Below, in pieces: positions 5,711-48,222 of a DNA stretch of 64,000 bases. Numbering within the stretch: the first letter of the stretch is position 1; each line of letters opens with the position of its first letter. Made by a program: the position numbers and the translations under genes. The DNA comes from Actinomycetota bacterium (lineage in GTDB: Bacteria; Actinomycetota; AC-67): NCBI GenBank assembly GCA_044866075.1, contig JBIOTQ010000115.1, positions 10,607 through 74,606 of the forward strand, written 5' to 3'. The notes beneath the pieces were generated by a model. That model made no database searches. It saw only the letters and a list, made by a program, of their open reading frames with translations, and was not told where the DNA came from.

Positions 5711-5796
5711 GGACTCCTCGTCTTCAGACACATCGGGATGAATGTCTATCAGCCGCGGACGCCGCGGCGATTTTCTCGTGACTGTTAGCCGAACAT

Positions 5797-9432: not shown

Positions 9433-9436
9433 AGCG

Positions 9437-10480
9437 ATGGCCGGCGAGCTCGCGCCCTGGCAAGAGCCCGTCCGCGGAGGCTACCCCGACCCGCGCGGTT
9501 TCGGGCTCCCCGGACTGGAGAGCCTCCGCGCCTACTTCTCGGGACGCGGTTTGATCCCGCCGATCTCGCGCCTGACCGGCATGTTGCTGCGTGAGGTCGA
9601 CGAGGGGTACGCCGTGTTCGAGATGCAGGCGACAGGATGGTTCCTCTCCTCCCAGAACCAGATCTCGGCCGGCGCCTTGATGATGCTCGCCGACGGATCT
9701 TTCGGCTGCTCGCTGCTAACGGCCCTTCCGCCGGCGACGCCGTACACCACCGCCGAACTGTCGATGAGCTTTCTCAAGCCGTGCGCCGCCGAAGGCACCG
9801 TCCGGGCGATCGGACGGCTGTTGCATATCGGTGACCCCCTGGCCCTCACCGACGTCTGGGTCGAAGACGCACGCGGCGAGCGCGTCGCACACGGAACCTC
9901 GACGCTGATGGTCCTGCCGGCGATCGAAGGCATCGAGCTCATCTCACCCGAGGACCTCCCTAACCTCGAACAGCCCACCTACGAGACGCCCGACCCCTTC
10001 GAGCGCGCACCGATCGGCGAGACCATCCCCTGGGACGAGTGGCGCACGATGCCCGGCGTGGAGATCCTGCGCCGCCAGATCAAAGGCGAGCTGCCGCAGC
10101 CGCCGATCCACTACCTCACGGGCATGACGCTGCAAGACGTCTGCGAGGGCTCCGCGCTCTTCACGATGCCGGCCTCGGAGTGGCTCACGAGCCCGTTGCG
10201 CACCGTGCAGGGCGGCGCGGTGGCGATGCTCGCGCACGCGGCGCTCGCGACGGCGGTGACCTCGACGCTCGAGGCCGGCAGCGCGTATCGCCCCGTCGAC
10301 GTGAAGGTGAACTTCCTGCGACCGGTGTTCGCCGACGGGACGGACCTCGAGGCGCGCGGCACCGTGACCCACCGCGGACGCACGCTCGCGGTCGCCAACG
10401 CCGAGGTGACCGGGGCCGACGGCAAGAAGGTCGCGACGGCGACAGGCTCGACGATCATCCTCCCCGAGCGGAGGGACTGA
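9437..10480 (+). CDS. tandem hotdog-fold (PaaI-type) thioesterase domain protein
   Basis: Two repeats of the PaaI/4HBT-like fold (…QNQISAGALMMLADGSFGCS… and …TVQGGAVAMLAHAALATAV…). Confidence 0.7.
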   Translation: MAGELAPWQEPVRGGYPDPRGFGLPGLESLRAYFSGRGLIPPISRLTGMLLREVDEGYAVFEMQATGWFLSSQNQISAGALMMLADGSFGCSLLTALPPATPYTTAELSMSFLKPCAAEGTVRAIGRLLHIGDPLALTDVWVEDARGERVAHGTSTLMVLPAIEGIELISPEDLPNLEQPTYETPDPFERAPIGETIPWDEWRTMPGVEILRRQIKGELPQPPIHYLTGMTLQDVCEGSALFTMPASEWLTSPLRTVQGGAVAMLAHAALATAVTSTLEAGSAYRPVDVKVNFLRPVFADGTDLEARGTVTHRGRTLAVANAEVTGADGKKVATATGSTIILPERRD

Positions 10481-11349
10481 TGCGGTTCGGTCTCGTCCCG
10501 CCGCTCGTCCACCGGAATCCGCGCTTCGATCCGCCGGCGTGGGAGACCACGGCGCAGATCGACGACCTCGCCGCCATCGCGCGGCGCGCCGACGAGCTCG
10601 GCTTCGACTTCATGTGTTTCCCCGGGCACGTCGCCATCCCGGAAGACGTCGGCGCCGTACGCGGCCTCGTCTACTGGGATCCCGTGGCGACGATGTCCTA
10701 CATCGCGGCCCACACCTCGCGCTTGAAGCTCTGCGCGTACGTCGTCGTGCTGGGCTACTACCACCCGCTACAGATCGCGAAGTCGTACGGATCGGTGGAC
10801 AGGCTGTCCGGCGGGCGGGTCATCCTCGGCGTGGGCGTCGGCTCGTTGCAGCAAGAGTTCGAGCTCCTCGGCGCGCCGTTCGAGGACCGCGGCCCGCGGG
10901 CCGACGACGCGCTCAAGGCGCTGCGCGCCTCGCTCTCGCAGAGGACCCCCGAGTACCACGGGACCTACTACGACTACGAGGGATTCGTTGTCGAGCCTCA
11001 CGCCGTGCAGGAGCACGTCCCGATCTGGGTCGGGGGCCGGACGGGCCGCTCTCTCCGCCGGGCGCTCGAGCTGGCCGACGGCTGGTCGCCCTTCAAGCTG
11101 AAGCTCGACGAGCTGCGCCCCATGCTCGAGGCGCATCGCGCAGCGATCGAGGCGCGGCCGGCCTTCGACCTGATCTTCCCGCCCGATCCGCCGCTCGACA
11201 CGCACGGCGATCCCGACGAAACGGACGCCGTCGTGTCGGCATACCGCGCCGCCGGCGCGACCGGACTCACGTTGCGCTTCGTCCACACCTCCCGCGACCA
11301 GTACCTCGACCAACTCGAGGCCTTCGCGACGAGACACATCAAGACCTGA
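10480..11349 (+). CDS. LLM-class F420-dependent oxidoreductase (luciferase-like monooxygenase family)
   Basis: MRFGLVPPLVHRNPRFDPPAWETTAQIDDLAAIARRADELGFDFMCFPGHVAIP... is typical of F420-dependent LLM. ATG overlaps the upstream stop (TGATG). Confidence 0.8.
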   Translation: MRFGLVPPLVHRNPRFDPPAWETTAQIDDLAAIARRADELGFDFMCFPGHVAIPEDVGAVRGLVYWDPVATMSYIAAHTSRLKLCAYVVVLGYYHPLQIAKSYGSVDRLSGGRVILGVGVGSLQQEFELLGAPFEDRGPRADDALKALRASLSQRTPEYHGTYYDYEGFVVEPHAVQEHVPIWVGGRTGRSLRRALELADGWSPFKLKLDELRPMLEAHRAAIEARPAFDLIFPPDPPLDTHGDPDETDAVVSAYRAAGATGLTLRFVHTSRDQYLDQLEAFATRHIKT

Positions 11350-11411
11350 CCTTCCGGCTATCACGCTGCGCGTCCGGCGCTCTCTATACTTTGTGCGTCA
11401 GAGGGGTACCC

Positions 11412-13196
11412 ATGAGCTCGGTCGGACTCGGTCACGCACGTCTGCCCACGCTGCCGGCGCTCGACGGCATCCGGGCGGTCGCGATCGCCGGCGTCCTCCT
11501 CTACCACAGCGACATCTACTGGTTCCCGGGCGGGCTCCTCGGCGTCGAGGTGTTCTTCGTCCTGTCCGGGTACCTGATCACGTCGCTGCTGCTCGGCGAG
11601 CTGCAGACGATCAGCCGGATCCGCATCAAGGATTTCCTCACCCGGCGCGCCCGCCGCCTGTTGCCTGCTCTGTTCGTGATGCTCGCGATAATGTCGACGA
11701 TCCTCGTCGTGTCCTTGCCGCACGAGGTCGCGCGAACGCGCGGGGACGTCGCGGCGGCGGCGACCTATACATCGAACTGGTATCTGATCCACGCCGACCA
11801 CTCCTACTTCATCGATTTCCAGCGCCCGTCACCGTTCGGTCACCTGTGGTCCCTTGCGATCGAGGAGCAGTTCTATCTGCTGTGGCCGCCGATCCTGCTC
11901 TTCTTGTGGAGACGCGTCCGCCGACGACGCCGCATCGCCGGAACGCTCCTGGCCGGCGCCGCGCTGTCGTCCGGGCTCCTCGCGTGGCTGTTCGACGCCG
12001 GCGATCCGTCGCGCATCTACTACGGCACCGATACGCGCGCCTCGGGCCTCTTGATCGGGGCCGCCTTGGCCGTTCTGTGGCGCCCCTTCATCGAAGATCA
12101 TCTCGTCGAGAAGACCCGCCGCTTCGTCGACGCCGCTACGATCGCGTCGAGCGGGTTCCTCGTCTACGCGTTCCTGCGGTTCGACGACCTCTCCCCCTTC
12201 ACGTATCGGCCCGGCCTCTTGCTCGTGTCGATCGCCACGGCGGTGCTCATCGCATCGTGCGTGCATCCCCACGCGCGCGTCGCGCGGCTGTACGGGACGA
12301 GACCCATGCGCTGGCTCGGCAAGCGCTCCTACGGCGTGTACATCTGGTACTTCCCCGTCTTCGCGCTGACCCGTCCGGGTGTCGACCTCGATCTGTCGAT
12401 CGGCGTCACGTTCGCGATCCGCGTCGCCGTCGTCCTCACCCTCGCCGCCTTGTCGTACCGTTTCGTCGAGGACCCGATCCGGAGCGGTGTCGCAGGCCGC
12501 AAGCTGAGGGAGCTCGCGCAACGGGCGCGCGTGCCGACGGACAAGGGCCGCCGTATCGACCTCGCGATGCGCGCCGCCGGGCTGATCGGCGTGACGATGA
12601 TCGGCGCGCTGCTCGTCACGATGGCCAACGCGCCCCTCCCGGCGGCGGTGGGATCATCCTCGTCGATCGCCTCCGTGCAGCGGGGTGATCGCGGCTTCGA
12701 AGATCCCGTGATCGACGCCCAGCCCCTCGACAAACGGGTCGTCGCGATCGGCGACTCGGTGATGAGCGGCGCGCGCCCCGCGCTGCGCGCCCGGTTCGGG
12801 CACGTCCGCGTCGATGCCGTCGTCGGACGGCAGGTGAAGGACGGGATCGCGCGGCTGGAATTCCTCAAGGCGCACGGAGCCCTCGGCGGGACAGTCATCA
12901 TCCACCTCGGCAACAATGGGCGCTTCACGTCGCCGCAGTTCGAGCGCATGATGCGTGTCCTGCGGGACGTCAATCACGTCGTCTTCGTCAATGTGAAGGT
13001 TCCCCGCCGGTGGGAGGCTTCGGTCAATCACGTGATCCTGGCCGGGAGGCACCGTCACCCCGAGGTCACCATCGTCAACTGGAAACGGCTGTGGCGGACC
13101 TGCCGGGGCCGCGTTTTCGGTGGCGACGGCACGCACCTCACCGCCCCCGGTGCGCGCTGCTACGCGGCGGCGATCGCGCAGGCTGCCAGACTCTGA
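11412..13196 (+). CDS. acyltransferase-3 (OafA/YrhL-type) membrane acyltransferase fused to C-terminal SGNH hydrolase domain
   Basis: ATG at 11412. About 10 TM helices with the AT3 motif (LDGIRAVAIAGVLLYH...WSLAIEEQFYLLWP), followed by a periplasmic SGNH domain (VVAIGDSVMSG...). The annotated 885-aa ORF is an upstream-extended artefact. Confidence 0.8.
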   Translation: MSSVGLGHARLPTLPALDGIRAVAIAGVLLYHSDIYWFPGGLLGVEVFFVLSGYLITSLLLGELQTISRIRIKDFLTRRARRLLPALFVMLAIMSTILVVSLPHEVARTRGDVAAAATYTSNWYLIHADHSYFIDFQRPSPFGHLWSLAIEEQFYLLWPPILLFLWRRVRRRRRIAGTLLAGAALSSGLLAWLFDAGDPSRIYYGTDTRASGLLIGAALAVLWRPFIEDHLVEKTRRFVDAATIASSGFLVYAFLRFDDLSPFTYRPGLLLVSIATAVLIASCVHPHARVARLYGTRPMRWLGKRSYGVYIWYFPVFALTRPGVDLDLSIGVTFAIRVAVVLTLAALSYRFVEDPIRSGVAGRKLRELAQRARVPTDKGRRIDLAMRAAGLIGVTMIGALLVTMANAPLPAAVGSSSSIASVQRGDRGFEDPVIDAQPLDKRVVAIGDSVMSGARPALRARFGHVRVDAVVGRQVKDGIARLEFLKAHGALGGTVIIHLGNNGRFTSPQFERMMRVLRDVNHVVFVNVKVPRRWEASVNHVILAGRHRHPEVTIVNWKRLWRTCRGRVFGGDGTHLTAPGARCYAAAIAQAARL

Positions 13197-32556: not shown

Positions 32557-34310
32557 CAGATGATCGCCTCCGGGGTGTCGACCAGGATGTCCTGGTGCGC
32601 TTTCTCGTACTCGGGCCCCAGGATGATGTCGTCGTTCGACGCGCCGGCCGGGACCATCGGGTAGCACTTCTCTTCGGGGTCGCAACGGAAGTCGATCACG
32701 ACGGTGCGGTCGTCAATCTCCGTGGCTTTGCGGATCGTCGCCTCGACCTCACCGGGGTTCTCGCAGCGCAGGCCGATCGCGCCGTAGGCCTCGGCGAGCT
32801 TCACGTAGTCGGGAACCTCGTAGCCGAACTCGACGGCCGAAAAGCGCTTCTCGTAGAAGAGCTCCTGCCACTGGCGGACCATCCCGAGGAACGCGTTGTT
32901 GATGATCGCGATCTTCACCGGGATGTTCTCGGTAGTCATCGTGGCGAGCTCCTGGCACGTCATCTGGAAACAGCCGTCGCCGTCGATCGCCCAGACGGTC
33001 TCGTCGGGCCGGCCGACCTTCGCGCCCATCGCTGCGGGAACGGCGTAGCCCATCGTGCCGAGGCCGCCCGAGTTGAGCCACGTGTTCGGCCGCTTGAAGC
33101 GGATGTACTGCGAGGCCCACATCTGGTGCTGACCCACGCCGGCCACATACACGGCGTCGCCCTTCGAGATCTTGCCGATCTGCTCGATGACGTACTCCGG
33201 CTTCAGCTTGCCGTCCGGCTCTTGCGTGTACATGTAGGGGTACTTCTTCTTCCAGGCCATGACCGTCTTTGTCCACTCGGGATACTCCGGGCGGCCGCGC
33301 TCCTCGATCATCTGCTCGAGCGTCTCGTTGAGGTCGTGGATCACGTTGCGCGCGTCGCCGACGATCGGCACGTCGACCGGGCGGTTCTTACCGATCTCTG
33401 CCGGGTCGATGTCGGCGTGGATGATCTTGGCGCTCGGCGCGAACGTGGCGAGCTTGCCCGTCACGCGGTCGTCGAAGCGCACGCCGAGGGAGACCAGCAG
33501 ATCCGCCTTCTGCATCGCCGTGACCGCCGTGTAGTTGCCGTGCATGCCCGGCATGCCGAGGCACAGCTCATGGTCGTCGGGGATGCCGCCGCGGCCCATC
33601 AGCGTCGTCACCGTCGGGATCCCCGTCAGCTCGACCAGGCGCCGGAGCTCGTCGGCCGCGCCGGCCCGGATGATGCCGCCGCCCGCGTAGATGACCGGCC
33701 GCTGCGCGGACAGGATCAGCTTTGCAGCTTCGCGGATCTGCTTCGGGTTGCCTTTGACGGTCGGACGGTAGCCGGGGAGATCGACCTCCTCCGGGTACCA
33801 CCACGCCATGTCGGTCTGCAGGACGTCCTTCGGGATGTCGACGAGGACCGGGCCCGGCCGCCCGCTGCGCGCGATGTGGAACGCTTCGGCGATCGTTTGC
33901 GGGATGTCCTGCGCGTCGAGGACCAGGAAGTTGTGCTTCGTCACCGGCATGGTGATGCCGGTCGCGTCGCATTCCTGGAACGCGTCGCCGCCGACCGCCC
34001 AGGTCGGCACCTGGCCGGTGATCGCGACGATCGGGACGGAGTCCATGTACGCGCTCGCGAGCCCGGTGACGAGGTTCGTCACGCCGGGGCCCGACGTCGC
34101 CATGCACACGCCGACCTCGCCGGTGGCTTGCGCGTAGCCGTCGGCGGCGTGCGCGGCGCCCTGCTCGTGCCGGCAGAGGATGTGGCGGATCGGCGAGTCG
34201 AGTATCGGGTCGTACGCCGGGAGGATCGCGCCGCCGGGGATCCCGAAGATGACCTCGACCCCCTCCTGTTCCAGCGAGCGGATCGTGGCTTGGGCTCCGG
34301 TGATCTTCAC
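32556..34310 (-). CDS. ilvB: acetolactate synthase large subunit
   Basis: [34 protein letters not shown]... TPP enzyme. GTG at 34310 preceded by AGGAGA; the track start at 34481 is an upstream extension. Confidence 0.9.
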
Positions 34311-34332
34311 GGCTGCATCACTCTCCTGATCT

Positions 34333-34929
34333 CTAGTTCGGCGACATTCGTTCGGACGTGCGGGCGACCTCGCGGATGACATCGTGCGCTTCGGCGACGC
34401 GCACGCCGACCGCGGCGAGATCTGCCAGGTTGACGCGGTGGGTCTCGTCGTTGCTCGCGGCCAGCGCGTCGGCCACGGCAACGATGTCGTAGTCGAGGCC
34501 GATGGCGTCGTACATCGTCATCCGGGGGCAGTTCGGCAGGTTGACACCGACGACGACGATCTTGGAGACGCCGGCCCGGCGCAGCAGCAGATCGAGCTCG
34601 GTGAACGCGAACGCGCTGAAACGCTGCTTCACGACGACCGGCTCGCCGGGCTCCGGCACCAAGCGGTCGACGATCTGCTGGCCCCAGGTGCGCTCGACCG
34701 TGAACCCGCGGTCGGCCTGGAACGCGGGCACCCGGAAGCGCTCGACGTCCCACGTGTCGGCGCGGTACGAGCGGACCACGTGGATGACCGGCTCCCGCGC
34801 CTCACGGAACGCATCCAGGATCGCGTTCATGACCGGCGCTTTGTGCGCCGCGTCCGGCATGAACGCCTTCCCGTCGGCGTGGGCGAGGTCGTTCTGCATG
34901 TCGATGATCAGAAGAGCGGTGCGGCCCAT
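34333..34929 (-). CDS. isochorismatase-family (cysteine hydrolase) protein, first gene of the ilv transcription unit
   Basis: [15 protein letters not shown]...[14 protein letters not shown] isochorismatase-like D/K/C motif. GGGAG RBS before the ATG at 34929. 22 nt upstream of ilvB. Confidence 0.75.
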
Positions 34930-34946
34930 TTCCAACTCCCTGGAAC

Positions 34947-34976
34947 GAAAAAACCTCTCGGCTTCCGAGAGGTTCA
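34947..34976 (-). terminator. attenuator terminator (hairpin + U-tract) between the ilv leader peptide and the operon
   Basis: Minus strand reads AACCTCTCGG-aag-CCGAGAGGTT followed by TTTTT, 29 nt downstream of the leader-peptide stop and about 20 nt upstream of the first gene's start. Confidence 0.6.
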
Positions 34977-35002
34977 CGCGCACGCCCGAGGCGAGCGCGT
35001 GG

Positions 35003-35053
35003 TCAGATAACGACTACGAGAACGCTCGCGCTACGCATCTCCTCGGGCTTCAT
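35003..35053 (-). CDS. ilv operon leader peptide MKPEEMRSASVLVVVI
   Basis: 16 codons ending in Val-Leu-Val-Val-Val-Ile before TGA. Preceded about 33 nt upstream by TTGACA, so the transcript is probably leaderless or has a very short 5' UTR. Confidence 0.6.
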   Translation of the reverse strand: MKPEEMRSASVLVVVI

Positions 35054-35108
35054 GGTAGGCGCTATCGTGCCAGCCCGCCCGGAAGGTGTCAACTGGCATC
35101 CGCGCAGG

Positions 35109-35504
35109 TCAGGCACTGTGACGCGCCGGAGGCAGCTCCGTGAGCGCCGCCTGCGCCGCGGCGAGCGCTTCCTTCGTATCGACGCCGAGCTGGCTCGCGC
35201 GCACCGCGAAGGAGTGCGCCGCCTGCCGGAGCTGTTCGAGCGATTCCTTCGGTCGCGGCCGGCTTCTGCCTCCCTCGATGAAGGTTCCGTGCCGGCCGCG
35301 CGTGACGATGAGGCCTTGATCCTCGAGCTCGCGGTACGCGCGCGCGACGGTTCCACCGGCCAGCGCCAGATCGTCTGCGAGCTGCCGGATCGGAGGCAGA
35401 CGCATTCCGTCGGCGAGCACGCCGCTCGCGATCATGCTGGCGACCTGCGAGCGGATCTGCTCGTAGGGCGGGACCGGTGAATCGGGGTCAATGCTGAGGA
35501 TCAC
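35109..35504 (-). CDS. GntR-family (short, YtrA-like) transcriptional regulator
   Basis: PYEQIRSQVASMIASGVLADGMRLPPIRQLADDLALAGGTVARAYRELEDQGLIVTRGRHGTFI wHTH. GTG at 35504 after AGGAGG, overlapping the stop of the upstream membrane-protein gene (GTGA). Confidence 0.7.
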   Translation of the reverse strand: MILSIDPDSPVPPYEQIRSQVASMIASGVLADGMRLPPIRQLADDLALAGGTVARAYRELEDQGLIVTRGRHGTFIEGGRSRPRPKESLEQLRQAAHSFAVRASQLGVDTKEALAAAQAALTELPPARHSA

Positions 35505-36469
35505 GCCGCGACCTCCTGCCGTCGTTGCGTACGCCGGACCACCCACTTCTGGTCGATGCCCAGGTGCAACCACGAGAACACAGCAGCTATCCCGCAGATG
35601 AGGCTCGCGAGTCCGAGCAACGAGTGGAAGGAGCCGCCGCTCGTGAATGTCGTCCACTGACCGGCCAGCCGCGAGAGGATCCCGAATTGCAGCGCGAGCC
35701 CCGCGCCGACGACAGCATGCATACCTGTCGAGCGGATGGCGTCGTCGGCTTCCACGAGTCCCTCGGAGACGGCCGGCTGCGGCCGGTGCACGATCCGACG
35801 CGTGGTGACCTCAACGATGATGACAAGAAGGATCGCGATCCCGCCCCACGCGAGAGCCTCGCCGAGATCGGGCCGCGTTCCGAGATTGTCCCCGCGAAAT
35901 GCCGGATGGCCCTTCGGTATGAGCTGCCACACGGCAACGAGAGCGACGGTTGCGAGAGACACGGAACGCATCAGGATCGTCGCGACGGGAGTGATGTAGT
36001 CGTTGATCCGCCGCGGCGCGAGGGCAGCGGCACGCGGCGCACCCGGCTGCGGACGGAACGCCCAGAGTTCGGCGATCGCCGCCCCCAGGAGATAGCCGCC
36101 GAACACCGCGCGCAACCCGCCAACGCCCGCCTTGTCCTGCCCAACGGCGACACCCACGATCACATAGGTGGCGTACCCGACCAACCCGCCGGCCGCACGG
36201 AAGCGCCTGCCGCGACGGAGGTAGCGGTGCACGACCTCCCGGTTTTCGTCCGTGATGGCGACCCCGTGCTTCTTCGTCCACCCTTTCAGGTAGTCCTCGC
36301 GAAGGAAGAACCCGTCGCGGATGATGAACGCGGCGACCGTCAGCAGCACGCCCACGGTGATGGCCTCGATCATGCCAAAACCCCACAGGTAGACGGACGA
36401 GAGCAGGAGGCCGATCACGATGATCGGCGGCGCGGCGAAGGACAGGATCTTCTTGGTCGTTGCGTTCAT
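35501..36469 (-). CDS. polytopic membrane protein (hypothetical), co-transcribed with the GntR regulator
   Basis: ATG at 36469. About 8 TM helices. I recognise no known family. Confidence 0.5.
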   Translation of the reverse strand: MNATTKKILSFAAPPIIVIGLLLSSVYLWGFGMIEAITVGVLLTVAAFIIRDGFFLREDYLKGWTKKHGVAITDENREVVHRYLRRGRRFRAAGGLVGYATYVIVGVAVGQDKAGVGGLRAVFGGYLLGAAIAELWAFRPQPGAPRAAALAPRRINDYITPVATILMRSVSLATVALVAVWQLIPKGHPAFRGDNLGTRPDLGEALAWGGIAILLVIIVEVTTRRIVHRPQPAVSEGLVEADDAIRSTGMHAVVGAGLALQFGILSRLAGQWTTFTSGGSFHSLLGLASLICGIAAVFSWLHLGIDQKWVVRRTQRRQEVAA

Positions 36470-36499
36470 CGCACCCACCCCCCCAGGCTCCCGTAGCCC

Positions 36500-36529
36500 T
36501 TTGTATCAACGCCTCAATACAATAATACA
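36500..36529. promoter_or_regulatory. AT-rich repeat element TTGTAT-N10-ATACAA-TA-ATACAA (candidate GntR operator/promoter)
   Basis: Stands out as a low-GC island in a 70% GC genome, directly upstream of the membrane-protein/GntR operon. Confidence 0.3.
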
Positions 36530-36607
36530 AAGTAGAAGGCTGTCAAGAGGAATCTTGGGGCCTAGGCGGTGCGGGCCAAGCGACGGAGACGGGACTCTTA
36601 GACCTCG

Positions 36608-38293
36608 TCAGCCGCAGACGGCTCCGCGGCTCGCGCTCGAGACAAGACGCGCGTATTTGGCCAGCGCGCCCGTCGTATAGCGCGGGGGTGGCGGCGACCA
36701 ATCCTGGAGCCGCAACGCGATCTGGTCCACCGGCACGTCCATGTCGAGGCGGCGGTTCGGGATGTCGAGGATGATCTGATCGCCTTCGCGGAGGAGGCCG
36801 ATCGGACCGCCGTCCGTCGCCTCAGGAGCGATGTGCGCAACCATGTTGCCGTGGGTCGCGCCGGAGAAGCGGCCGTCGGTGATGAGGCACACGTGGTCGC
36901 CGAGACCGGCGCCGTTCACGGCGCTCGTAACGGCCAGCATCTCGCGCATGCCGGGGCCACCGCGCGGCCCCTCGTAACGGATCACGATCACGTCGCCGCG
37001 CTTGATACGTCCCTGCACGACCGCGTCGAACGCGTCCTCTTCGCGGTCGAAAACCCGGGCCGGGCCTTTGAAGACGGTGTCGTGCAGGCCGGCCATCTTC
37101 GCGACGCACCCCTCCGGCGCGAGCGAGCCGCGCAGGATGGCGAAGCCTCCCATCGCGGAGATCGGTTCGGCGAGCGGGTGGACGACCTCGCGATTGGTCG
37201 GCGTCCCCGCGCCTTCTAGGTTCTCCGCCACCGTCTTGCCGGTGACCGTCAGTGCGTCGCCGTCGATGAGTCCGGCGTCGAGCATCTCGCGCATGATCGC
37301 CGGGATGCCGCCCGCGCGATCGATGTCGAGCATGACGAAGCGGCCCCACGGTTTCATGTCGGCGATGATCGGCGTCCGGCGGGCGATGCGGTCGAAGTCG
37401 TCGATCTCGAGCTCGGCGCCGACCTCGTTCGCGATGGCGAGGAGATGCAGGACGGCGTTCGTCGATCCTCCACAAGCGACGACGACGGCGATGGCGTTCT
37501 CGAGCGCGGTCTTCGTGATGATGTCGCGCGGCGTGATGCCCAACTCGAGGAGGTTCAGCACCGCTTCGCCGCTCGCACGCCCGAACGCGTCGCGCCGCGG
37601 ATCGACGGCGGCGGGGCTTGCGCTTCCGGGCAACGAAACGCCGAGCGCCTCGAGCGCGGTGGCCATCGTGTTGGCGGTAAACATCCCACCGCACGCGCCC
37701 GCACCGGGGCAGGCGTTCCGTTCCAGCTCCCGAAGGTCGTCGTCGCTCATCGTTCCCGCCGCGTGCGCGCCGACCGCTTCGAAGACGTCTTGGATCGTCA
37801 CGTCGTGGCCCTGGAACTGCCCGGGGAGGATCGTGCCGCCGTAGAGGAACACGCTCGGCAGGTTGAGCCGGGCGGCTCCCATCACCATGCCGGGCAGCGA
37901 CTTGTCGCACCCAGCGATGGTGACGAGGCCGTCGAAGCGTTCGGCGTGCGCGACGAGCTCGACCGAATCCGCGATGATCTCGCGACTCACGAGCGATGCG
38001 CGCATGCCTTCGTGGCCCATCGAGATGCCGTCCGACACCGCGATCGTCGTGAACTCGACCGGCACTCCCCCGGCCGCGCGCGCGCCCTCCTTCGCCGCTT
38101 TCGCGACGCGGTCGAGGTTGAAGTTGCAAGGGGTCACCTCGTTCCAGGAGGAGGCGACGCCGATCTGCGGTTTGTTGAAGTCCTCTTCCGAGAAACCGAC
38201 GGCCCGGAGCATCGCGCGGGCCGGCGCGCGCGCCGGGCCCTCGGTCACCTCGCGGCTGCGGTGGCGCGGGTCGGCTTTCGTTCTCTGGGGCAT
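36608..38293 (-). CDS. ilvD: dihydroxy-acid dehydratase
   Basis: 561 aa, IlvD/EDD family throughout ([18 protein letters not shown]...). Confidence 0.95.
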
Positions 38294-38371
38294 CGCGCGA
38301 AAGGATACCGGCTCCGCCCACCGTTCGGTCCCGAAGGGCCGCGGGCGACGAGGCTCGAATATCCTCGGGCT

Positions 38372-39373
38372 ATGAGACGGCGCTCGGGGGCGCGGATCCT
38401 CCTAGGGTGTGTTGCGCTGGGCGTCCTCGTTCCGTCCTGCCTCTTCGTGCCGGGCAACAACCCCGTCGACGCCTATCGGTCGGCGCGGAGGCTGGCGGAG
38501 TTCGATGAGGTGGACCCAAGGATTCCGCACATCACGATCGTGCTCCACGCGTTCCGCGAGGACGCGATCGACGTCTATTCGCCCGGCTCTGAGGAAGAAC
38601 AGATCTTTATCGCCGAGGCTGCCGCGGCATCCTTCGGTGAATCGTTCCCCGTCGCGGAGCCGAACTTCTTCGAGGACAACCGCGCGGATGTGCAGCTCGG
38701 GCACAGGCTGCTCAAACGTGAGGGAGACCTCTACACCCTGACCGTGCCGACTCAGGGACTGCAGGCCGCGGTCGAGAGCCGTGAATACTCGGGTTTCGAT
38801 CTCCTCATCTGTCCGCCGAATGCAGAAGCCGTCTTCCTCGCTTCCCGACCTCCGGATTTCGAGGCGTGTATCAACGGCCGGGCATGGGAGGTCGGCGACG
38901 AGCGCCTGACCGTCACGGTGACCGTCCGTCCACGAACCGCCCACTACCTCATCTTCGTGGCCTCGGTCATCCTCGGCCTCGTGCTGCTGGGCGCGCTCGC
39001 ATGGTTCGTCGGGAGCCGCTTGCGCGAGGGGCCGTTCCGGAACCGAACCTCGTCGGCGGTCGCGCTCGGCCTGATCGTCGGGGTGCTCGCGGGAGGCGGC
39101 GTCGCGTGGTCGATCGCCAGCGCGGCGATGCAGCTGGGCCCCTCCGACAACATCGCCCTTTCGAAGGACCTCGGGGTCGGTCTTTATGCCTTGTCGGCCG
39201 CCCTCCCCGCTCTGGCGGGGGCGATCCCCGGCCTCATCTTCCTGATCCTTCTGGTGAAACGGCGGCCGTGGCCGGATCAGCTCAGACCGGAACTGCCGGC
39301 GTTCCCGCCACCCCCGCCGCCCGGCGGCCCCGGATCATCTCCACCGCCGCCGCTTCCGTTCGGCGGTCGCTAG
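38372..39373 (+). CDS. lipoprotein/membrane protein with C-terminal TM helices and proline-rich tail (hypothetical)
   Basis: ATG at 38372. [17 protein letters not shown] signal and possible lipobox, a ~200-aa extracytoplasmic domain, 3 TM helices, and a C-terminal [19 protein letters not shown] tail. Confidence 0.5.
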
Positions 39374-40113
39374 GAGGGTCCGGCCACGCCGGGTGTTCCG
39401 GGCGGGGTCGGCGCCGGGCCTTCCCACACGGGAGCACCTCCGGCGTCGATGCCGAGCCCTCGCAGGAGCGCATCCTCCATCGCTTCGTCGTCGTCGAAAT
39501 GTCCGTTGCCGTCCCCCATCGTCTTGTACCGCCACACCATCCCCCAGATTCCCGCGGTGATGATGGTCAGGAAGATGTACAGTCCGGTGCTCCGTCTCTG
39601 CACGGGTTTCCGTCGCGGCGGGATCGCAGAGGACATCCCGAGCTTCTGCATGATCCACTCGGCGTTCGCTGCGTAACTCGACTCCCATTCGTCGAAGAAG
39701 ATCAGATCCCTGTTGAGGAAGTGGTTGATGTAGGCGCCGACCAAGATCCCCACGTAGGGGATGAAGCGGAGGATCATCCAGAGCACAGGCTCGCGCTTGT
39801 TGCGAAGCTCGAAGGCGTCGATCTGCTGGTAGATACGCGACAGATTGTCGAGTCCTTCGGCGACCTCTTCCCGACGGCCGGCCGACTCGGCACGCGTGTT
39901 GAGCGTGTGCCAGAAGTACGACATGAACGCGAGCCGGCGTCGCGCGTGCTCGCTGCGTCGCTGGACGAGGCGGTAGGTCCCGTAATGCACGTAGAAACCG
40001 AACGTGATGATCGTCCAGCCGAGATAGCTCCAGTAGTTGAAGCGATAGTCGGTCTCGCCTCGTCTGCGAACCTCGGCGACGAGGAATTGTTCGTAGCTAA
40101 GTTGCGTAGCCAT
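39370..40113 (-). CDS. DUF4234-like membrane protein, paralog 2 (internal duplication)
   Basis: Two internal segments with the GxY...WxY-type DUF4234 signature (YWSYLGWTIITFGFYVHYGTY and LYIFLTIITAGIWGMVWRYKT), plus a Pro/Gly-rich tail. About 80% identical to the upstream paralog. Confidence 0.6.
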   Translation of the reverse strand: MATQLSYEQFLVAEVRRRGETDYRFNYWSYLGWTIITFGFYVHYGTYRLVQRRSEHARRRLAFMSYFWHTLNTRAESAGRREEVAEGLDNLSRIYQQIDAFELRNKREPVLWMILRFIPYVGILVGAYINHFLNRDLIFFDEWESSYAANAEWIMQKLGMSSAIPPRRKPVQRRSTGLYIFLTIITAGIWGMVWRYKTMGDGNGHFDDDEAMEDALLRGLGIDAGGAPVWEGPAPTPPGTPGVAGPS

Positions 40114-40940
40114 CAGGGCCGGTCCCGCGGCGCTTGGGGAGGCGGCAGGTGGCCGCTAGGCCCGAACTGGTGGCTCTCGTGCAGTGGCAGGGGCCCCGGG
40201 AGATCGGCCGGCGGTTCTCCAACGCCGGGTGTGCCCGGGGGGTTCACGAAGCCTGATCCCCACGCGGGAACGGCGCCCGGATCGACGCCAATCCCCCGCA
40301 GCAGCGCGTCCTCCATCGCGGCGTCGTCGTCGAAGTGGCCGTTCCCGTCGATCATGGTCTGGTACCGCCAAACGAGCGAGAAGATGCCGAACGTGATGAC
40401 GGTCAAGAATACGTACAGCCCGGTGCTCCGATTGTGCACCGGTCTCGCTCTCTTCGGCACCGACACGGACATGCCGAGTCGCTGCATCACCCATTCGGCG
40501 TTGGCCGCGTAGCTCGACTCCCACTCGTCGAGGAAAACGAAGTCCTTGTTCAAGAAATGGTTGATGTAGGCGCCGACGGGCCCGAAGACAAGGCGCAGGA
40601 TCATCCAGAGGATCGACTCGCGTTTGTTGCGCAAGTCGTACGCGTCGACCTGCTGGTAGATCCGGGAGAGGTTGTCGAGACCCTCCGCGACCTCGTCGCG
40701 GCGGCCCGAGGATTCGGCGCGCTGGTTGAGCGTGTGCCAGAAGTAGGACATGAACGCCAGGCGCCGGCGAACGTGCTGCGCCCGGCGCTCGACGAGCTTG
40801 TAGGTCCCGTAGTGGCCGTAATAGGTGAACGTCAGGATGGTCCAGCCGAGGTAGCTCCAGTAGTTGAAGCGGTAGTCGGTTGCGTCGCGGCGACGCACCT
40901 CCGCCACCAGGAATTGTTCGTAGGTGAGCTGCTGACTCAC
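40113..40940 (-). CDS. DUF4234-like membrane protein, paralog 1
   Basis: MSQQLTYEQFLVAEVRRRDATDYRFNYWSYLGWTILTF.... The start of paralog 2 overlaps its stop (TGATG). Confidence 0.6.
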   Translation of the reverse strand: MSQQLTYEQFLVAEVRRRDATDYRFNYWSYLGWTILTFTYYGHYGTYKLVERRAQHVRRRLAFMSYFWHTLNQRAESSGRRDEVAEGLDNLSRIYQQVDAYDLRNKRESILWMILRLVFGPVGAYINHFLNKDFVFLDEWESSYAANAEWVMQRLGMSVSVPKRARPVHNRSTGLYVFLTVITFGIFSLVWRYQTMIDGNGHFDDDAAMEDALLRGIGVDPGAVPAWGSGFVNPPGTPGVGEPPADLPGPLPLHESHQFGPSGHLPPPQAPRDRP

Positions 40941-41001
40941 TGCGCCCTCCTTCGGCCGGGGCTAGCCTCACGTACGGGAGGGACAAGGTCAAACGAGTTC
41001 G

Positions 41002-41196
41002 TCAGAGGATCGCGCGGCACCATGAGCAGCGCGCCGGCGGGTCCCGGCGCGCGTCGTAGATGTTCGGCCTCTGACAGTTCCAACAGTGGACCGACGCGAC
41101 GGCCGGCGTTGGCGATGAGGGCGGCCGGCTCGCGTGGTAGCCGGCGAGGAGCTTGTCGAGCTCGGGGTCGGCGCGCTTGCGGCGGCGGAAAGGCAT
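41002..41196 (-). CDS. small zinc-ribbon protein (CxxC...CxxC), hypothetical
   Basis: ATG at 41196 after GGGGGG. 64 aa: MPFRRRKRADPELDKLLAGYHASRPP...HCWNCQRPNIYDARRDPPARCSWCRAIL. Confidence 0.4.
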   Translation of the reverse strand: MPFRRRKRADPELDKLLAGYHASRPPSSPTPAVASVHCWNCQRPNIYDARRDPPARCSWCRAIL

Positions 41197-41272
41197 CTCG
41201 CGACCCCCCGGGAGCGGATCCAACGTTCACCCGAGAGTAAACGCCGGGCGCCCGAAAGGCGAAACTCGGCCG

Positions 41273-42733
41273 CTATGTCTCGCGGGCCAGGGCGGCCTGC
41301 AGGGATGCGCGGACGGCGTCGTTGTTCCCCTGGCCTTTGAGCGCGCGCTGGACCTGACCGATCAGGAATCCGAAGACCTTCTCCTCGCCCGCGCGGAACC
41401 GCTCGACCTCCTTGGGGTGCGCCGCGAGGACCTCGGCCACGGTCGCGTCGATCTGCGACGTGTCCGAGACCTGCGCGAGGCCGCGCTCTTCGACGATCGC
41501 CGCCGGATCGGCTCCGGTGTCGAACGCATCCTGGAACACCTTCTTCGCCGTGTTGAGGTTGATCGTGCCGTTCCGGACGAGGGCGATCAGCCCGGCGAGC
41601 GCCGGCGCCGGCACACGAACGTCCTCGATCCCGATGCCGGCAACGTTGAGCGCCCGCGCCAGCTCCCCGGACATCCACACGGCGGCGTCGCGCGGAGCCA
41701 CGTCCTGAGCGAGCAGGTCCTCGAAGTACGCGAGGCTCGCAGTCGACGCGCCGACGATGGCCGCCTGCTCGGCGGTGAGACCGTGCTCGCTCTCGAGGCG
41801 CGCGCGCCGCGCCGCCGGAAGCTCCGGGAGTTGTCCCCGCAGACCATCGATCCACGCGGCCTCGGGCTCTATCGGGACGAGGTCCGGCTCCGGGAAGTAC
41901 CGGTAGTCGAACGCCTCCTCCTTCGAGCGGAGCGTTTTCGTCACGCCGGCGGCTTCGTCGAAGTGCCGCGTCTCTTGCACCAGCCGATCGCCTTTGTCCA
42001 GAGCCGTACTCTGTCGCTCGATCTCGTAGGTCAGCGCGCGGCCCACCGACCGGATCGAGTTGAGGTTCTTGATCTCGACCTTCGTCCCGAACCCTTCGCC
42101 CGGCTTCCGCAGCGACACGTTCGCGTCGCACCGCATCGAGCCTTCCTCCATGCGGACGTCCGACACGCCGAGCGCCTCCAGGATCGACCGCAACTCGCCC
42201 ACGTACCTCTGCGCTTGCGCCGGGGAGCGGATGTCGGGTTCCGAGACGATCTCGACGAGCGGGATACCGGCGCGGTTGTAGTCGACGAGCGAATACTTCG
42301 CTTCGTGGATCCGGCCTGTGGTCCCGACGTGCAACGTCTTCCCGGTGTCCTCCTCGAGATGCACGCGCGTGATGCCGACGCGGCGCGTGTCGCCGTCGAC
42401 GGCGACGTCGAGGTACCCGGCGATACACAGCGGAAGGTCGTATTGGGAGATCTGATAGTTCTTCGGCATGTCGGGATAGAAGTAGTTCTTGCGGTGGAAG
42501 AGCGACCGCGGGGCAATCTCGCAGCCGAGCGCGAGTCCGATCAGCATCGTGTACTCGACCGCTTTGCGGTTGGCGACCGGCAGAGATCCCGGCTCCCCGA
42601 GACACACGGGGCACGTGCGGGTATTCGGCTCCCCGCCGAAGGTCGTCGGACATCCGCAGAACATCTTCGACGCCGTCGCGAGCTCGACGTGGCACTCGAG
42701 CCCGATCACCGCTTCGTAGCCGTTGGCGCTCAC
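41273..42733 (-). CDS. gatB: Asp-tRNA(Asn)/Glu-tRNA(Gln) amidotransferase subunit B
   Basis: [52 protein letters not shown]... is canonical GatB. GTG at 42733 overlaps the stop of the upstream small ORF (GTGA); an alternative ATG lies at 42778. Confidence 0.9.
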   Translation of the reverse strand: MSANGYEAVIGLECHVELATASKMFCGCPTTFGGEPNTRTCPVCLGEPGSLPVANRKAVEYTMLIGLALGCEIAPRSLFHRKNYFYPDMPKNYQISQYDLPLCIAGYLDVAVDGDTRRVGITRVHLEEDTGKTLHVGTTGRIHEAKYSLVDYNRAGIPLVEIVSEPDIRSPAQAQRYVGELRSILEALGVSDVRMEEGSMRCDANVSLRKPGEGFGTKVEIKNLNSIRSVGRALTYEIERQSTALDKGDRLVQETRHFDEAAGVTKTLRSKEEAFDYRYFPEPDLVPIEPEAAWIDGLRGQLPELPAARRARLESEHGLTAEQAAIVGASTASLAYFEDLLAQDVAPRDAAVWMSGELARALNVAGIGIEDVRVPAPALAGLIALVRNGTINLNTAKKVFQDAFDTGADPAAIVEERGLAQVSDTSQIDATVAEVLAAHPKEVERFRAGEEKVFGFLIGQVQRALKGQGNNDAVRASLQAALARET

Positions 42734-43098
42734 GAGCTCCTCCGCGACAGGCCGTAGTACTCGCGCAGCTGCGGCCATGTCTGGCTGGAGATCACGGCGA
42801 TCGCGACGGTGACCGCCGTGCCGACCGGCAGCAGCAGCAGGAAGACGGTGCAGGCCACGAGGCCGAACCCGAGGCCCGCCGGGCCGCGGATCCCGGCGAG
42901 CAGCGCGCACGCGCCGCCGGCGACCATCAGCGTGCCGATCCCGGCCGGCACGGCCCACGCCGGCTCGTCGAACCCGTGCGATCCGCCGATCGCGAAGGAC
43001 GTGATCGCCACGAACGCGCCGAGGATCGTTCCGATCCAACCGGAGAAGCGCAGCACGCGCACCGCGGCCGGGCGGACGTCGGCGGCCGCGGTCGTCAC
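42730..43098 (-). CDS. small integral membrane protein inserted between gatA and gatB (hypothetical)
   Basis: About 122 aa, 3 to 4 TM helices. GTG start overlaps the gatA stop (GTGA) and its stop overlaps the gatB GTG (GTGA). Confidence 0.5.
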
Positions 43099-44567
43099 CG
43101 CGCCTCCCACAGGGGCGGCGTCGGTGCCGGCCCGAGCGTCTGCTCCAACGCGTGCGCGGCGCGGAAGAGAAGCTCCTCGGACAGCGGCGGGCCGAGGACC
43201 TGGATCCCGACCGGAAGGCCGTCGTCGGACAAACCGCAGGGCAGGCTCACGCCGGCCGCGCCCGCGAGGTTGGACGGGATCGTGAACAGATCAGAGAGAT
43301 ACATCGCGAGCGGGTCGTCGGTCTTCTCGCCGATCTTGAACGCGGTCGTCGGGCTCGTCGGACAGATGAGGAAGTCGAACGTCTTGTACGCCTCGTCGAA
43401 GTCGCGGATGACGATCGTCCGCACCATCTGGGCCTTGCCGTAGTAGGCGTCGTAGTAGCCGGCCGACAGCGCGTACGTGCCGAGCATGATGCGGCGCTTG
43501 ACCTCGTCGCCGAAGCCGTGCGCGCGGCTGCGCATGTTCATGTCGACTACGTCGCGCGGATCGTCGGCGCGGTAGCCGTAGCGGACGCCGTCGTAGCGTG
43601 CGAGGTTCGACGAGCACTCCGCGGGGGCGATCAGGTAGTACGCGGACAGCGCCACGTCGAACGACGGCAGAGAGACCTCGTCGACGTCGCAGCCGAGCGA
43701 GGCGAAGTGTTCGGCGGCCTCCTGGACGCGCGCCTTCACGCCGGGCTGCGTCCCCTCCCCCATCCCCTCGCGCACGACGCCGACCTTGAGGCCCTCGACG
43801 CCGCGGTCGAGCGCGCCGACGTAGTCGGGAACCGGTTCCGTCGCGCTGGTCGAATCCATCGGATCGTGCCCGGCGATCGTCTGCAGGACGGAGGCGGCGT
43901 CGCGCACCGTCCGCGCGAACGGTCCGATCTGGTCGAGCGACGAGGCGAAAGCGATGAGTCCGTACCGCGAGACGCGACCGTACGTCGGCTTCACGCCGAC
44001 GACGCCGCAGAGAGAGGCCGGCTGGCGGATCGAGCCGCCCGTGTCGGTACCCAGCGACACGGGCGCCATCCCCGCGGCGACGGACGCGGCGCTGCCGCCG
44101 GATGATCCACCGGGCACACGCGCGAGATCCCACGGGTTGCGCGTGGGGCCGAACGCGGAGTTCTCTGTCGAGGAGCCCATCGCGAACTCGTCCTGGTTCG
44201 TCTTGCCGAGGATCGGCATGCCGGCCGCGCGCAGTATCGACACGACGGTCGCGTCGTAGGGCGGGACGTAGTTCTCGAGGATCCGGCTTCCTGCGGTCGT
44301 GCGCACGCCGTCGGTGCAGAGCACGTCCTTGAGCGCGATCGGAACGCCGGCGAGTGGGCTCAGCGCCTTGCCGCGCGCGCGCGCTTCATCGACTGCATCC
44401 GCCTGCCCTCGCGCCTGGTCCGCGGTCACACTGAGGAACGCGTGGACCTCGGGGTCGAGCGCGTCGATGCGCGCGAGGTGCGCGTCGACGACATCGCGCG
44501 CGCTCGCCTCGCCGCTCGCGACGGCGCGCGCGATAGATGACGCGTCGAGTTGCCAGAGGTCGGCCAC
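43095..44567 (-). CDS. gatA: Glu-tRNA(Gln) amidotransferase subunit A
   Basis: Amidase-signature [33 protein letters not shown] with GatA-typical ends. Confidence 0.95.
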
Positions 44568-44570
44568 TTG

Positions 44571-44864
44571 TTACTGCTCCTCGATGATCCGTGGGACCTT
44601 GAAGCGGCCGTCCTCGACCTCGGGCGCGGTGGAGAGCGCCTTGCCTTGCGGGAGGCACTCGCTGATCTCGTCGTCGCGGAACACGTTCACGAGCGGGAGC
44701 GCGTGGGAGGTCGGCGGGACGTCGTCCGCCGCGACCTCGCTGACCCGTGCGGCGTGATCGAGGATCGCCGAGAGCTGCGCGCCGAACCGCGTCACCTCGT
44801 CGTCGGACAGAGCGAGGCGCGCGAGCCGCGCGACGTGGAGGACCTCTTCCCGGGAGAGCTGCAT
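44571..44864 (-). CDS. gatC: Glu-tRNA(Gln) amidotransferase subunit C
   Basis: 97 aa, MQLSREEVLHVARLARLALSDDEV..., immediately upstream of gatA. Confidence 0.9.
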   Translation of the reverse strand: MQLSREEVLHVARLARLALSDDEVTRFGAQLSAILDHAARVSEVAADDVPPTSHALPLVNVFRDDEISECLPQGKALSTAPEVEDGRFKVPRIIEEQ

Positions 44865-44873
44865 GGCGGCAGT

Positions 44874-47086
<2,213 letters not shown>

Positions 47087-47151
47087 GAGGACCTCCGCGT
47101 CGGCTACCGCGTCATTATAGGTCGGGGCGAGGGCCGTTTCGGGCGCCGCGG

Positions 47152-48222
47152 TTACGCGAGCGAACGCGCGATCGTACCGCCGCCGAGGACCTCGTCGCCT
47201 GCGTAGAAGGCGACCAGTTGTCCGGGTGCGACGCCCCGCTGAGGGACGGCGAAGCGGACGGTCGCGGTGCCGTCTTCCACGCCCTCGAGGGTCGCCGCGA
47301 TCTGGGTTCCGTGCGCGCGGATCTGTGCCTGCGTGAAGGTTCCGGGCGAGGGCCGATCCGCGATCCAGGAGACGCGCTCCGCGACGAGGCCTCCGCGCGC
47401 GAGCAGCTCGCCGGGCCCGACGACGACGCGGTTGCGCGGCGCGTCGACCTCGAGCACGTACCGCTTCTCGTGCGTGGCCAGCCCGAGGCCGCGGCGCTGG
47501 CCGATGGTGTAGTGCGGCAGGCCCTGGTGCTCGCCGACAACGGCACCGCCGACGTCGACGATCTCGCCGGGCGCGGTACCGCCGAGCGCGCTCTCGACGA
47601 ACCCGCCGGCGTCGCCGTCGGGCACGAAGCAGATCTCGTACGAGTCGGGCTTGTCCGCGGTCCGCAGAGACAGCTCCCGAGCGATCGCGCGCGTCTGCTC
47701 CTTCGTCTGCCCGCCGACCGGGAACCGCGCGAACGCGAGCGCCTCCTGCCCTAGCGTCGACAGGACGTACGACTGGTCCTTGTTGGGGTCGGCGCTGCGC
47801 GACAGGCGCCAGGCGCCGCGCTCGAAGCGATTGATGGCGTAGTGGCCGGTCGCGACCGCGTCGAAGCCGGCGCGCTGCCCGCGCTCGAGCAGCGCGCCGA
47901 ACTTCACCGTCTCATTGCACCGCACGCAGGGGTTCGGCGTGCGGCCGCTCGCGTACTCGGCGACGAAGTCGTCGAGCACGCCGCGGGAGAACTCCTCGGT
48001 CAGGTCCCACACGTAGAACGGCACGTCGAGGACCTGCGCGACGCGCCGCGCGTCGTCCGCGGCCTCCACCGTGCAGCACCCGTGGACGCGGCCGGCGGAC
48101 TCGTGCGCGGGCGCGTTCGACAGCTTCATGTGCACGCCTGTGACGTCGTGCCCTTCCGCGACGAGCATCGACGCGGCGACGGACGAATCGACGCCGCCCG
48201 ACATCGCGACGAGGACCCTCAT
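47152..48222 (-). CDS. mnmA: tRNA 2-thiouridine(34) synthase
   Basis: MRVLVAMSGGVDSSVAASML... PP-loop and MnmA C-terminal domains. ATG overlaps the desulfurase stop (ATGA). The annotated 626-aa ORF is an upstream-extended artefact. Confidence 0.9.
   Translation of the reverse strand: MRVLVAMSGGVDSSVAASMLVAEGHDVTGVHMKLSNAPAHESAGRVHGCCTVEAADDARRVAQVLDVPFYVWDLTEEFSRGVLDDFVAEYASGRTPNPCVRCNETVKFGALLERGQRAGFDAVATGHYAINRFERGAWRLSRSADPNKDQSYVLSTLGQEALAFARFPVGGQTKEQTRAIARELSLRTADKPDSYEICFVPDGDAGGFVESALGGTAPGEIVDVGGAVVGEHQGLPHYTIGQRRGLGLATHEKRYVLEVDAPRNRVVVGPGELLARGGLVAERVSWIADRPSPGTFTQAQIRAHGTQIAATLEGVEDGTATVRFAVPQRGVAPGQLVAFYAGDEVLGGGTIARSLA

Follow-up and report, generated by a model that had tools for sequence, protein, structure and literature searches.

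What do four small, adjoining and uncharacterised genes do in an otherwise housekeeping region of an actinobacterial chromosome, and do they work together? The question is raised by a stretch of 64,000 nucleotides (nt) from an Actinomycetota bacterium (contig JBIOTQ010000115.1, positions 10,607 to 74,606), hereafter called the window. Here, between gatB and ilvD, are found genes for a zinc-ribbon mini-protein, for two tandem membrane proteins of the DUF4234 type, denominated paralogs A and B, and for a probable lipoprotein of opposite orientation. Each paralog is made of three homologous repeats, and both belong to a large unnamed family. The reading that we favour, with a probability of about 0.4, is that this family provides a cytoplasm-facing membrane scaffold, that at this locus the interaction module is a zinc-ribbon mini-protein encoded on its own, and that the lipoprotein is a clade-specific addition. 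The association of the four genes is limited to one shallow clade of uncultured soil Actinomycetota, and synteny alone would explain it. As judged from sequence comparisons, the locus would be a lineage-specific membrane module rather than a widespread new system. The four genes are arranged as follows:

41002..41196, minus strand: zinc-ribbon mini-protein gene, 64 amino acids from the ATG at 41196 (the longest form of the open reading frame begins with TTG at 41223)
40113..40940, minus strand: paralog A, DUF4234-type triple-repeat membrane protein, 275 amino acids
39370..40113, minus strand: paralog B, DUF4234-type triple-repeat membrane protein, 247 amino acids
38372..39373, plus strand: probable lipoprotein gene, 333 amino acids

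The list of open reading frames (ORFs) and the reading of the sequence agree on the coordinates of all four, which had been given in a preliminary description of the locus. The overlaps noticed on that occasion are also seen in the sequence. One base is common to the stop of paralog A and the start of paralog B (TGATG), and a single CTAG holds the stops of paralog B and of the convergent lipoprotein gene, resulting in a 4-nt overlap. That the cluster lies between ilvD and gatB in a housekeeping block is confirmed by the identity of the two flanking genes to orthologs (85-89% for ilvD, 78-81% for gatB) in which the Pfam domains ILVD_EDD and GatB, respectively, are found. The GC content of the window is ~67%, and ranges from 0.63 to 0.70 across the region. 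The GC content at third codon positions (GC3) is 0.82-0.89 in all four ORFs, which is a coding signature. The four may be regarded, as originally supposed, as real, uncharacterised, membrane-associated genes without a known function.

The DUF4234-type paralogs and their family

Assignment of the paralogs to Pfam DUF4234 (PF14018) had been proposed together with its own test, a hidden Markov model search. The search upholds it, as both proteins exceed the gathering threshold of 25.3 bits (41.9 bits, in two stretches, for B; 31.5 bits for A). The match is a partial one. It covers positions 1-34 (B) and 1-28 (A) of the 70 positions of the model, corresponds to residues ~174-207 of the proteins, and does not extend to the whole domain. 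The same partial match was found in distant members of the family, and homologs carry precomputed PF14018 matches.

An internal duplication had been noticed earlier in each paralog. The homologous repeats are real, but profile-profile comparison indicates that they are threefold rather than twofold. In paralog B they are located as follows:

39880..40071, minus strand: repeat 1, residues 15-78; TDY motif, weakly hydrophobic helix-turn-helix (GWTIITFGFY), long helix with R52, H56 and R59
39634..39816, minus strand: repeat 2, residues 100-160; hydrophobic hairpin PVLWMILRFIPYVGILVGAY, NHFLNxD motif, WE motif
39448..39621, minus strand: repeat 3, residues 165-222; the part recognised by Pfam as the N-half of DUF4234, RSTGLYIFLTIITAGIWGMVWRY…DGNGHFDDD…E, with the Pfam stretch at 174-207
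39373..39447, minus strand: C-terminal Pro/Gly-rich tail, predicted to be disordered (predicted local distance difference test, pLDDT, <55 from residue ~230)

When compared by hhalign, repeats 1 and 3 align with a probability of 96.9% (E 1.8e-10), H56 being aligned to H205. Repeats 2 and 3 align with a probability of 95.3% (E 2.2e-8), and repeats 1 and 2 with a probability of 82.6% (E 9.6e-6). The AlphaFold2 (AF2) model of paralog B, obtained from 23 homologs, is all helical (pLDDT 88.6, predicted template modelling score 0.84). Each repeat is folded in the model as a short helix, a turn at a conserved glycine (Gly39, Gly126 or Gly188) and a helix of 24-37 residues. Hydropathy analysis of the same protein reveals only three short hydrophobic stretches, at residues 28-42 (weak), 108-134 and 174-196. 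The tails vary widely in length and sequence among orthologs, the long Pro/Gly-rich tail of paralog A being poorly conserved, and distant homologs have none.

A and B are 73% identical (E 3e-140), somewhat less than the ~80% of the preliminary description. The ratio of nonsynonymous to synonymous substitution rates (dN/dS) is 0.19 and dS is 0.99; both copies have therefore been selectively maintained, and the duplication is not very recent. Paralog A starts with GTG, 7 nt downstream of a Shine-Dalgarno sequence (AAGGAGG), and has a GC3 of 0.87. For comparison with other genomes, 80 loci from species-representative genomes, denoted below by L numbers, and further contigs have been scored by tblastn. 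The single-copy ortholog of locus L001 is 82% identical to paralog A, and clusters with it in a neighbour-joining tree.

The paralogs share with Pfam DUF4234 proteins the hydrophobic signature (R)xTxLYxxLtIxTxGIxxxxWxY, and function is known for neither group. They differ from them because the half-unit is found thrice per chain, with long helices in between, in a protein of ~220 residues which has invariant residues of its own. A profile search of 1.84 billion representatives of clusters formed at 50% identity identified 1067 such proteins at E<=1e-3, 381 of which at E<=1e-10. A word-indexed search found 73 relatives, with source labels reading uncultured Actinomycetota or missing altogether. 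In the records of distant members the name is either 'hypothetical protein' or nothing. Alignment of 34 diverse members, at ~25% identity, reveals that D22, R52, H56, R59, W194, H205 and E213 are invariant, and that T21, Y47, W112, G188, N203 and F206 are nearly so. All seven invariant residues are held by both paralogs of the window. In distant members the hairpins are widened to pairs of full transmembrane helices, as seen for repeat 2 in the proteins P0195, P0203 and P0226. The hydrophobic units of the window clade are single segments of ~20 residues, interrupted by a turn.

Some members of the family are fused to known domains. A zinc ribbon was found in 12 of the 149 best representatives (~8%), at the N-terminus in ten and at the C-terminus in two, and one member, P0147, features a C-terminal FHA domain. 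The corresponding Pfam domains (Zn_Ribbon_1/DZR and FHA) have been confirmed in the fused members scanned. The P0147 gene resides in a single-strand operon (L094 1439-11248) encoding also a transglutaminase, a VWA protein, two FHA proteins (one with a zinc ribbon), a PrsW-FHA protein, a Ser/Thr kinase with an FHA domain and a PP2C phosphatase. FHA, kinase and PP2C genes were found only around P0147, and none is present among the genes of the window or in the Pfam tables of its syntenic relatives.

The family appears to reach the Archaea, because the gene context of member P0237 is archaeal in type: the cluster adjoins genes encoding NAC, ribosomal proteins L1 and L10, and alanyl-tRNA synthetase. 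A member found in such an archaeal-type context (L091 6001-7403) is convergent with a CDP-alcohol phosphatidyltransferase gene, and three independent contigs of the one lineage have exactly this layout.

Tandem duplications have occurred independently in the window and in L005, L006, L025, L049, L059, L061, L064 and L098, a recurrence which fits oligomerising proteins. Three tandem copies are found in some Acidimicrobiia (L025, L059 and L061, around positions 9100-12300), one of the L059 copies being seemingly truncated or frameshifted. The two copies of L098 (1311-4015) are separated by a luciferase-like monooxygenase gene.

No conserved neighbour of the family gene, hereafter the DUF gene, was found in 73 distant loci (L008-L080, ~30% identity, mostly from Acidimicrobiia). 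Over the 80 loci the sole recurrent neighbours are zinc-dependent alcohol dehydrogenases and oxidoreductases of the luciferase-like monooxygenase class, and both have been rejected as partners, because Actinobacteria are rich in such enzymes. A search of the homologs from Acidimicrobiia and of the close clade for zinc ribbons, either fused or adjacent, found none.

The zinc-ribbon protein, the lipoprotein and their distribution

The zinc-ribbon mini-protein features a basic N-terminus (FRRRKR), a short helix (LDKLLAGY), a proline-rich linker (SRPPSSPTP) and a C-terminal CWxC-X16-CxWC knuckle, and is devoid of hydrophobic segments. The four cysteines, which form two CxxC pairs, are invariant in seven orthologs (L001, L002, L003, L081, L083, L085 and L086). 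Codon alignment of the same seven sequences yields 446, 396 and 693 substitutions at the first, second and third codon position, respectively, hence a third-position excess, and the N-termini of the orthologs agree with the ATG at 41196. No zinc-ribbon family of Pfam is matched at E<=1, and the sole Pfam match is to Tmemb_55A (E 0.05). Only three matches were found among 5.8 billion proteins, versus the eight genomes in which the gene has been identified here. The low count is partly due to gene callers, which skip the ORF; genes this small are missed, and so under-represented in protein databases. Uncalled ORFs of 63-65 amino acids are found in the public assemblies at L083 10899-11093, L086 5813-6004 and L089 3053-3244.

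In seven of the eight genomes the distance between the zinc-ribbon gene and the downstream DUF gene is 0-67 nt. The two genes are still side by side in L002 and L086, where a NicO-like gene has been inserted after gatB. In L087 the position, 13 nt upstream of the DUF gene, is occupied by a different protein, in which a zinc ribbon is fused to DUF4190. The order of the two genes is also that of the domains in the fusions, in which the zinc ribbon precedes the N-terminal helix and the TDY motif. Four metagenomic fusions (P0184, P0194, P0203 and P0211) agree with the window proteins in their triple-repeat core and invariant residues, and have a cytoplasmic zinc ribbon located directly before the N-terminal helix. 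They differ in having a spacer of ~10 residues and full-length transmembrane hairpins, whereas the zinc ribbon of the window is a separate protein of 64 amino acids with the pattern CxxC-X16-CxxC. The pairing of the zinc-ribbon and DUF genes is the only link within the cluster to enjoy independent support, of a modest kind, from the zinc ribbons fused in distant members.

The probable lipoprotein features a signal-like segment, a putative lipobox with Cys23, an alpha/beta ectodomain of ~170 amino acids, three transmembrane helices and a polyproline tail. It is a small family, as only eight members, all from the window clade and all lacking a Pfam domain, were found among the 5.8 billion proteins. 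Cys23 is invariant in eight orthologs, as are Cys147 and Cys166, both located in the ectodomain. Position -1 of the lipobox is Gly or Ser in all eight; position -2 is atypical, being Pro or Gln in five. The tail is conserved in all eight as RPWP(D/E)…WPAPPPP…PPPPP(I/L)PxGxR, and is plausibly cytoplasmic, as suggested under the positive-inside rule by the positive charges that follow transmembrane helices 1 and 3. The AF2 model assigns pLDDT values of 81-92 to the ectodomain and low values to the remainder.

GC by codon position is 0.70/0.51/0.82 in the lipoprotein gene. Two minus-strand ORFs located inside the gene, 38402-38944 (180 amino acids, GC3 0.70) and 38944-39153 (69 amino acids, GC3 0.96), have been rejected as high-GC artefacts, although both were preferred to the lipoprotein gene by a simple gene caller based on GC3. 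The plus-strand ORF, and not the antisense ones, is identified as the real gene by its codon-position GC and by the conservation of its orthologs. It was first missed by the GC3-based caller because its longest ORF form extends antisense through ilvD.

Proline-rich tails had been attributed to all four proteins. The lipoprotein, A and B do have the three proline-richest C-termini among the ~54 predicted proteins of the window (47%, 30% and 23%, respectively, of the last 30 residues, against a median of 6.7%), but the zinc-ribbon protein has no such tail, its prolines being gathered in the linker. A scan for promoters and terminators inside the cluster found nothing exceeding shuffled expectation.

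The backbone ligA-gatC-gatA-(small membrane gene)-gatB…ilvD is kept wherever the DUF protein is at least ~53% identical to that of the window, with the exception of L004/L088, which has a different context. The three gene types are distributed in the tabulated loci as follows:

DUF gene: present in all tabulated loci (window, L001-L003, L005-L007, L081, L083, L085-L088)
Zinc-ribbon gene: present in the window, L001, L002, L003, L081, L083, L085 and L086; absent in L005, L006, L007, L087 and L088
Lipoprotein gene: present in the window, L001, L002, L003, L081, L083 and L085; absent in L086, L005, L006, L087 and L088; L007 ends within the DUF gene

The pattern is nested, as no locus lacks the DUF gene, eight genomes have the zinc-ribbon gene, and seven of those eight have the lipoprotein gene too. 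Genes are lost stepwise with distance, the lipoprotein first (L086), then also the zinc-ribbon gene (L005-L007, L087, L088). The stops of the lipoprotein and DUF genes overlap or nearly abut in every genome hosting the lipoprotein. Conserved co-occurrence, the test proposed with the preliminary description, supports a unit of four genes only in part. The zinc-ribbon, DUF and lipoprotein trio recurs in seven genomes, but these are all close relatives (DUF protein at least ~65% identical, ilvD 85-89%), and no conserved neighbour accompanies the DUF gene in the 73 distant loci.

Searches for function returned little. The four window proteins and two distant family members have no match at E<=0.1 in PADLOC-DB, no PHROGs match is found below E 0.004, and nothing was found in NCBIfam for the four proteins or in Rfam for positions 34000-48000. 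Profile searches of the PDB with the DUF and lipoprotein families gave nothing below E 0.05. No convincing fold or sequence match was found for the lipoprotein, the ectodomain of which had a candidate for comparison in Mycobacterium tuberculosis LppM (PDB 2nc8). Its transmembrane region matches weakly DUF898 (the YjgN domain), below threshold (14.5 bits versus 28, E 0.019). The only mention of DUF4234 retrieved from the literature is a passing table entry (PMC6753144), where a protein of Enterococcus faecalis is listed with both DUF898 and DUF4234; 'PF14018' retrieved nothing but Plasmodium gene names. Integrases, repeats and compositional breaks were not seen in the region. Altogether these results lend no support to the view of the locus as a defence system, mobile element or metabolic operon.

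Possible roles of the locus

The constant element of the locus would be a membrane-embedded helical bundle facing the cytoplasm, in which the N-half of DUF4234 is repeated three times in tandem, each time plausibly as a hydrophobic helix-turn-helix with a long amphipathic helix after it. The bundle may anchor cytoplasmic interaction modules to the membrane or act as their scaffold. In the window the zinc-ribbon module would be a separate protein, encoded just upstream and probably on the gatCAB transcript, in a split version of the fused architecture, and A and B would probably form a hetero-oligomer. The lipoprotein may have entered later, in this clade only, the same variable slot. Its polyproline tail, if cytoplasmic, and the tails of the DUF proteins could, speculatively, share a cytoplasmic binding partner.

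The predicted orientation relies on the fusions. Zinc-ribbon and FHA domains are cytoplasmic, and we infer from their presence in fused members that both termini of the DUF proteins are cytoplasmic as well. Each hydrophobic unit would then enter and leave the membrane on the cytoplasmic side, as suggested by the location of the termini, by the paired transmembrane helices of distant members, by the single, turn-broken segments found here, and by the logic of the repeats.

Several observations weigh against such a scaffold with a split module. Zinc-ribbon and lipoprotein genes co-occur in one close clade only, in which synteny is expected regardless of function, and in L083 the zinc-ribbon and DUF genes are set apart by a gene for a Gly-rich protein of 330 amino acids. 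The argument from fusions is weak, because small membrane proteins of many sorts carry fused zinc ribbons, and no homology to the fused ones is detectable for the zinc ribbon of the window, which has a 16-residue spacer and lacks a Pfam match. The FHA/kinase context was found once only, the re-entrant topology has been deduced rather than observed, and the invariant D/R/H/R/W/H/E set could mark an active or ligand site instead of a scaffold.

The main rival view, nearly as probable as the favoured one, is that the four genes are unrelated neighbours. The gatB-ilvD slot would be a permissive one that gathers genes for small membrane proteins, which have in common their site and their composition (proline-rich tails, in a genome of 67% GC) and no joint function. 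The content of the slot does differ among relatives, as NicO-like genes, a 330-amino acid secreted protein, transmembrane proteins of 176-188 amino acids or DUF2752/DUF4190 genes are found there, and presence and absence are nested in the way stepwise gain would give. The location of the lipoprotein gene on the opposite strand fits the same picture, as does the failure of the DUF family to retain a neighbour in the 73 distant loci. Chance accommodation accounts less readily for the short zinc-ribbon/DUF spacing, kept within 0-67 nt in seven genomes out of eight, for the replacement of one zinc-ribbon protein by another in L087, and for the zinc ribbons fused within the very same DUF family. 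Similarly, the lipoprotein and DUF stops are adjoining wherever the lipoprotein is present, and the polyproline tail of the latter is conserved in sequence, which mere drift would not give.

The seven residues that are invariant over 34 sequences at ~25% identity invite a different view of the DUF4234-type protein, as an interfacial membrane enzyme, or a metal or anion binder. A site formed by one Asp, two His, one Glu and two Arg at the cytoplasmic surface might act, for example, on a lipid head group. The equivalence of H56 and H205 in repeats 1 and 3 agrees with this, and so does the CDP-alcohol phosphatidyltransferase gene adjoining the archaeal-type member. We consider it unlikely, as the residues lie on single helix faces (52/56/59 and 205/209/213), where a salt-bridge network between helices would fit equally well, the lipid-synthesis neighbour is an isolated case, and the window clade has Trp in place of the equivalent His of repeat 2.

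The most ambitious proposal, to which we attach very little probability, would unite all the products in one trans-envelope adaptor. The ectodomain of the lipoprotein would sense the outside, the polyproline tails would be read by the aromatic-rich knuckle of the zinc ribbon (CWxC…Y…CxWC), the DUF4234-type bundle would be hetero-oligomeric, and the widespread family would be a monotopic scaffold, so far unrecognised, recruiting zinc-ribbon or FHA signalling modules in both bacteria and archaea. Small channels, transporter accessories and phage-defence or mobile-element cargo modules often include tandem paralogs and small membrane proteins, and NicO-like transporter genes adjoin the module in L002 and L086, but such a role is highly improbable, given the negative PADLOC and PHROGs searches, the absence of integrases, repeats and compositional breaks in a region with an even GC of 0.63-0.70, hydrophobic segments too short and too broken in this clade for a membrane-spanning pore, and the lack of a NicO-like gene in most relatives.

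The DUF4234 domain has already been catalogued, and the proteins are in this respect not of a new kind. The triple-repeat architecture, the set of invariant residues, the reach into an archaeal-type context and the split zinc-ribbon partner are new descriptions. If the favoured scaffold reading holds true, Pfam DUF4234 corresponds to one third of a larger repeat protein, represented by ~1000 clusters at 50% identity, with a fixed set of invariant charged residues and with zinc-ribbon or FHA partners in the cytoplasm. Family curators would gain a better domain definition, and the 64-amino acid zinc-ribbon protein and the paralogs would be a concrete pair for tests. No new pathway, defence system or mechanism is indicated, no phenotype has come into view either, and the genes are associated only within a shallow clade.

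Other genes of the gatB-ilvD region

The order ligA-gatC-gatA-(small membrane gene)-gatB…ilvD…ilvBNC, with variable membrane and lipoprotein genes, is common to all close relatives. The block presumably resembles the Rv3001c-Rv3014c region of M. tuberculosis, which includes lppZ; we know of no counterparts of the slot genes described here in characterised actinobacteria.

Genes found in the slot vary from locus to locus. A NicO-like transporter gene is located at L002 3040-4300 and at L086 4111-5439, and L083 encodes a secreted protein of 330 amino acids rich in Gly, Ser and Thr (9837-10829). Arginine-rich transmembrane proteins of 176-188 amino acids are encoded at L081 7423-7989 and L085 7770-8300. 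The L087 slot (5065-5988) hosts a DUF2752 gene next to that of the zinc-ribbon-DUF4190 protein.

The gene located between gatA and gatB overlaps both in the window (42730-43110, minus strand), and encodes a small multi-pass membrane protein of 126 amino acids. Homologs 48-49% identical are found in L002 and L003, and no Pfam family includes them. One to three copies, in tandem where there are several, are found in L081 (111 and 123 amino acids), L083 (122 amino acids), L085 (136, 123 and 112 amino acids), L086 and L087.

On the other side of the cluster, the window hosts at 35109-36478 (minus strand) a pair of genes, one for a GntR-family regulator, the best NCBIfam match of which is of the Rv1152 type and falls below the cut-off, and, upstream of it, one for a multi-pass membrane protein of 325 amino acids belonging to no known family. 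The pair is kept beside ilvD in L002, L003 and L085.

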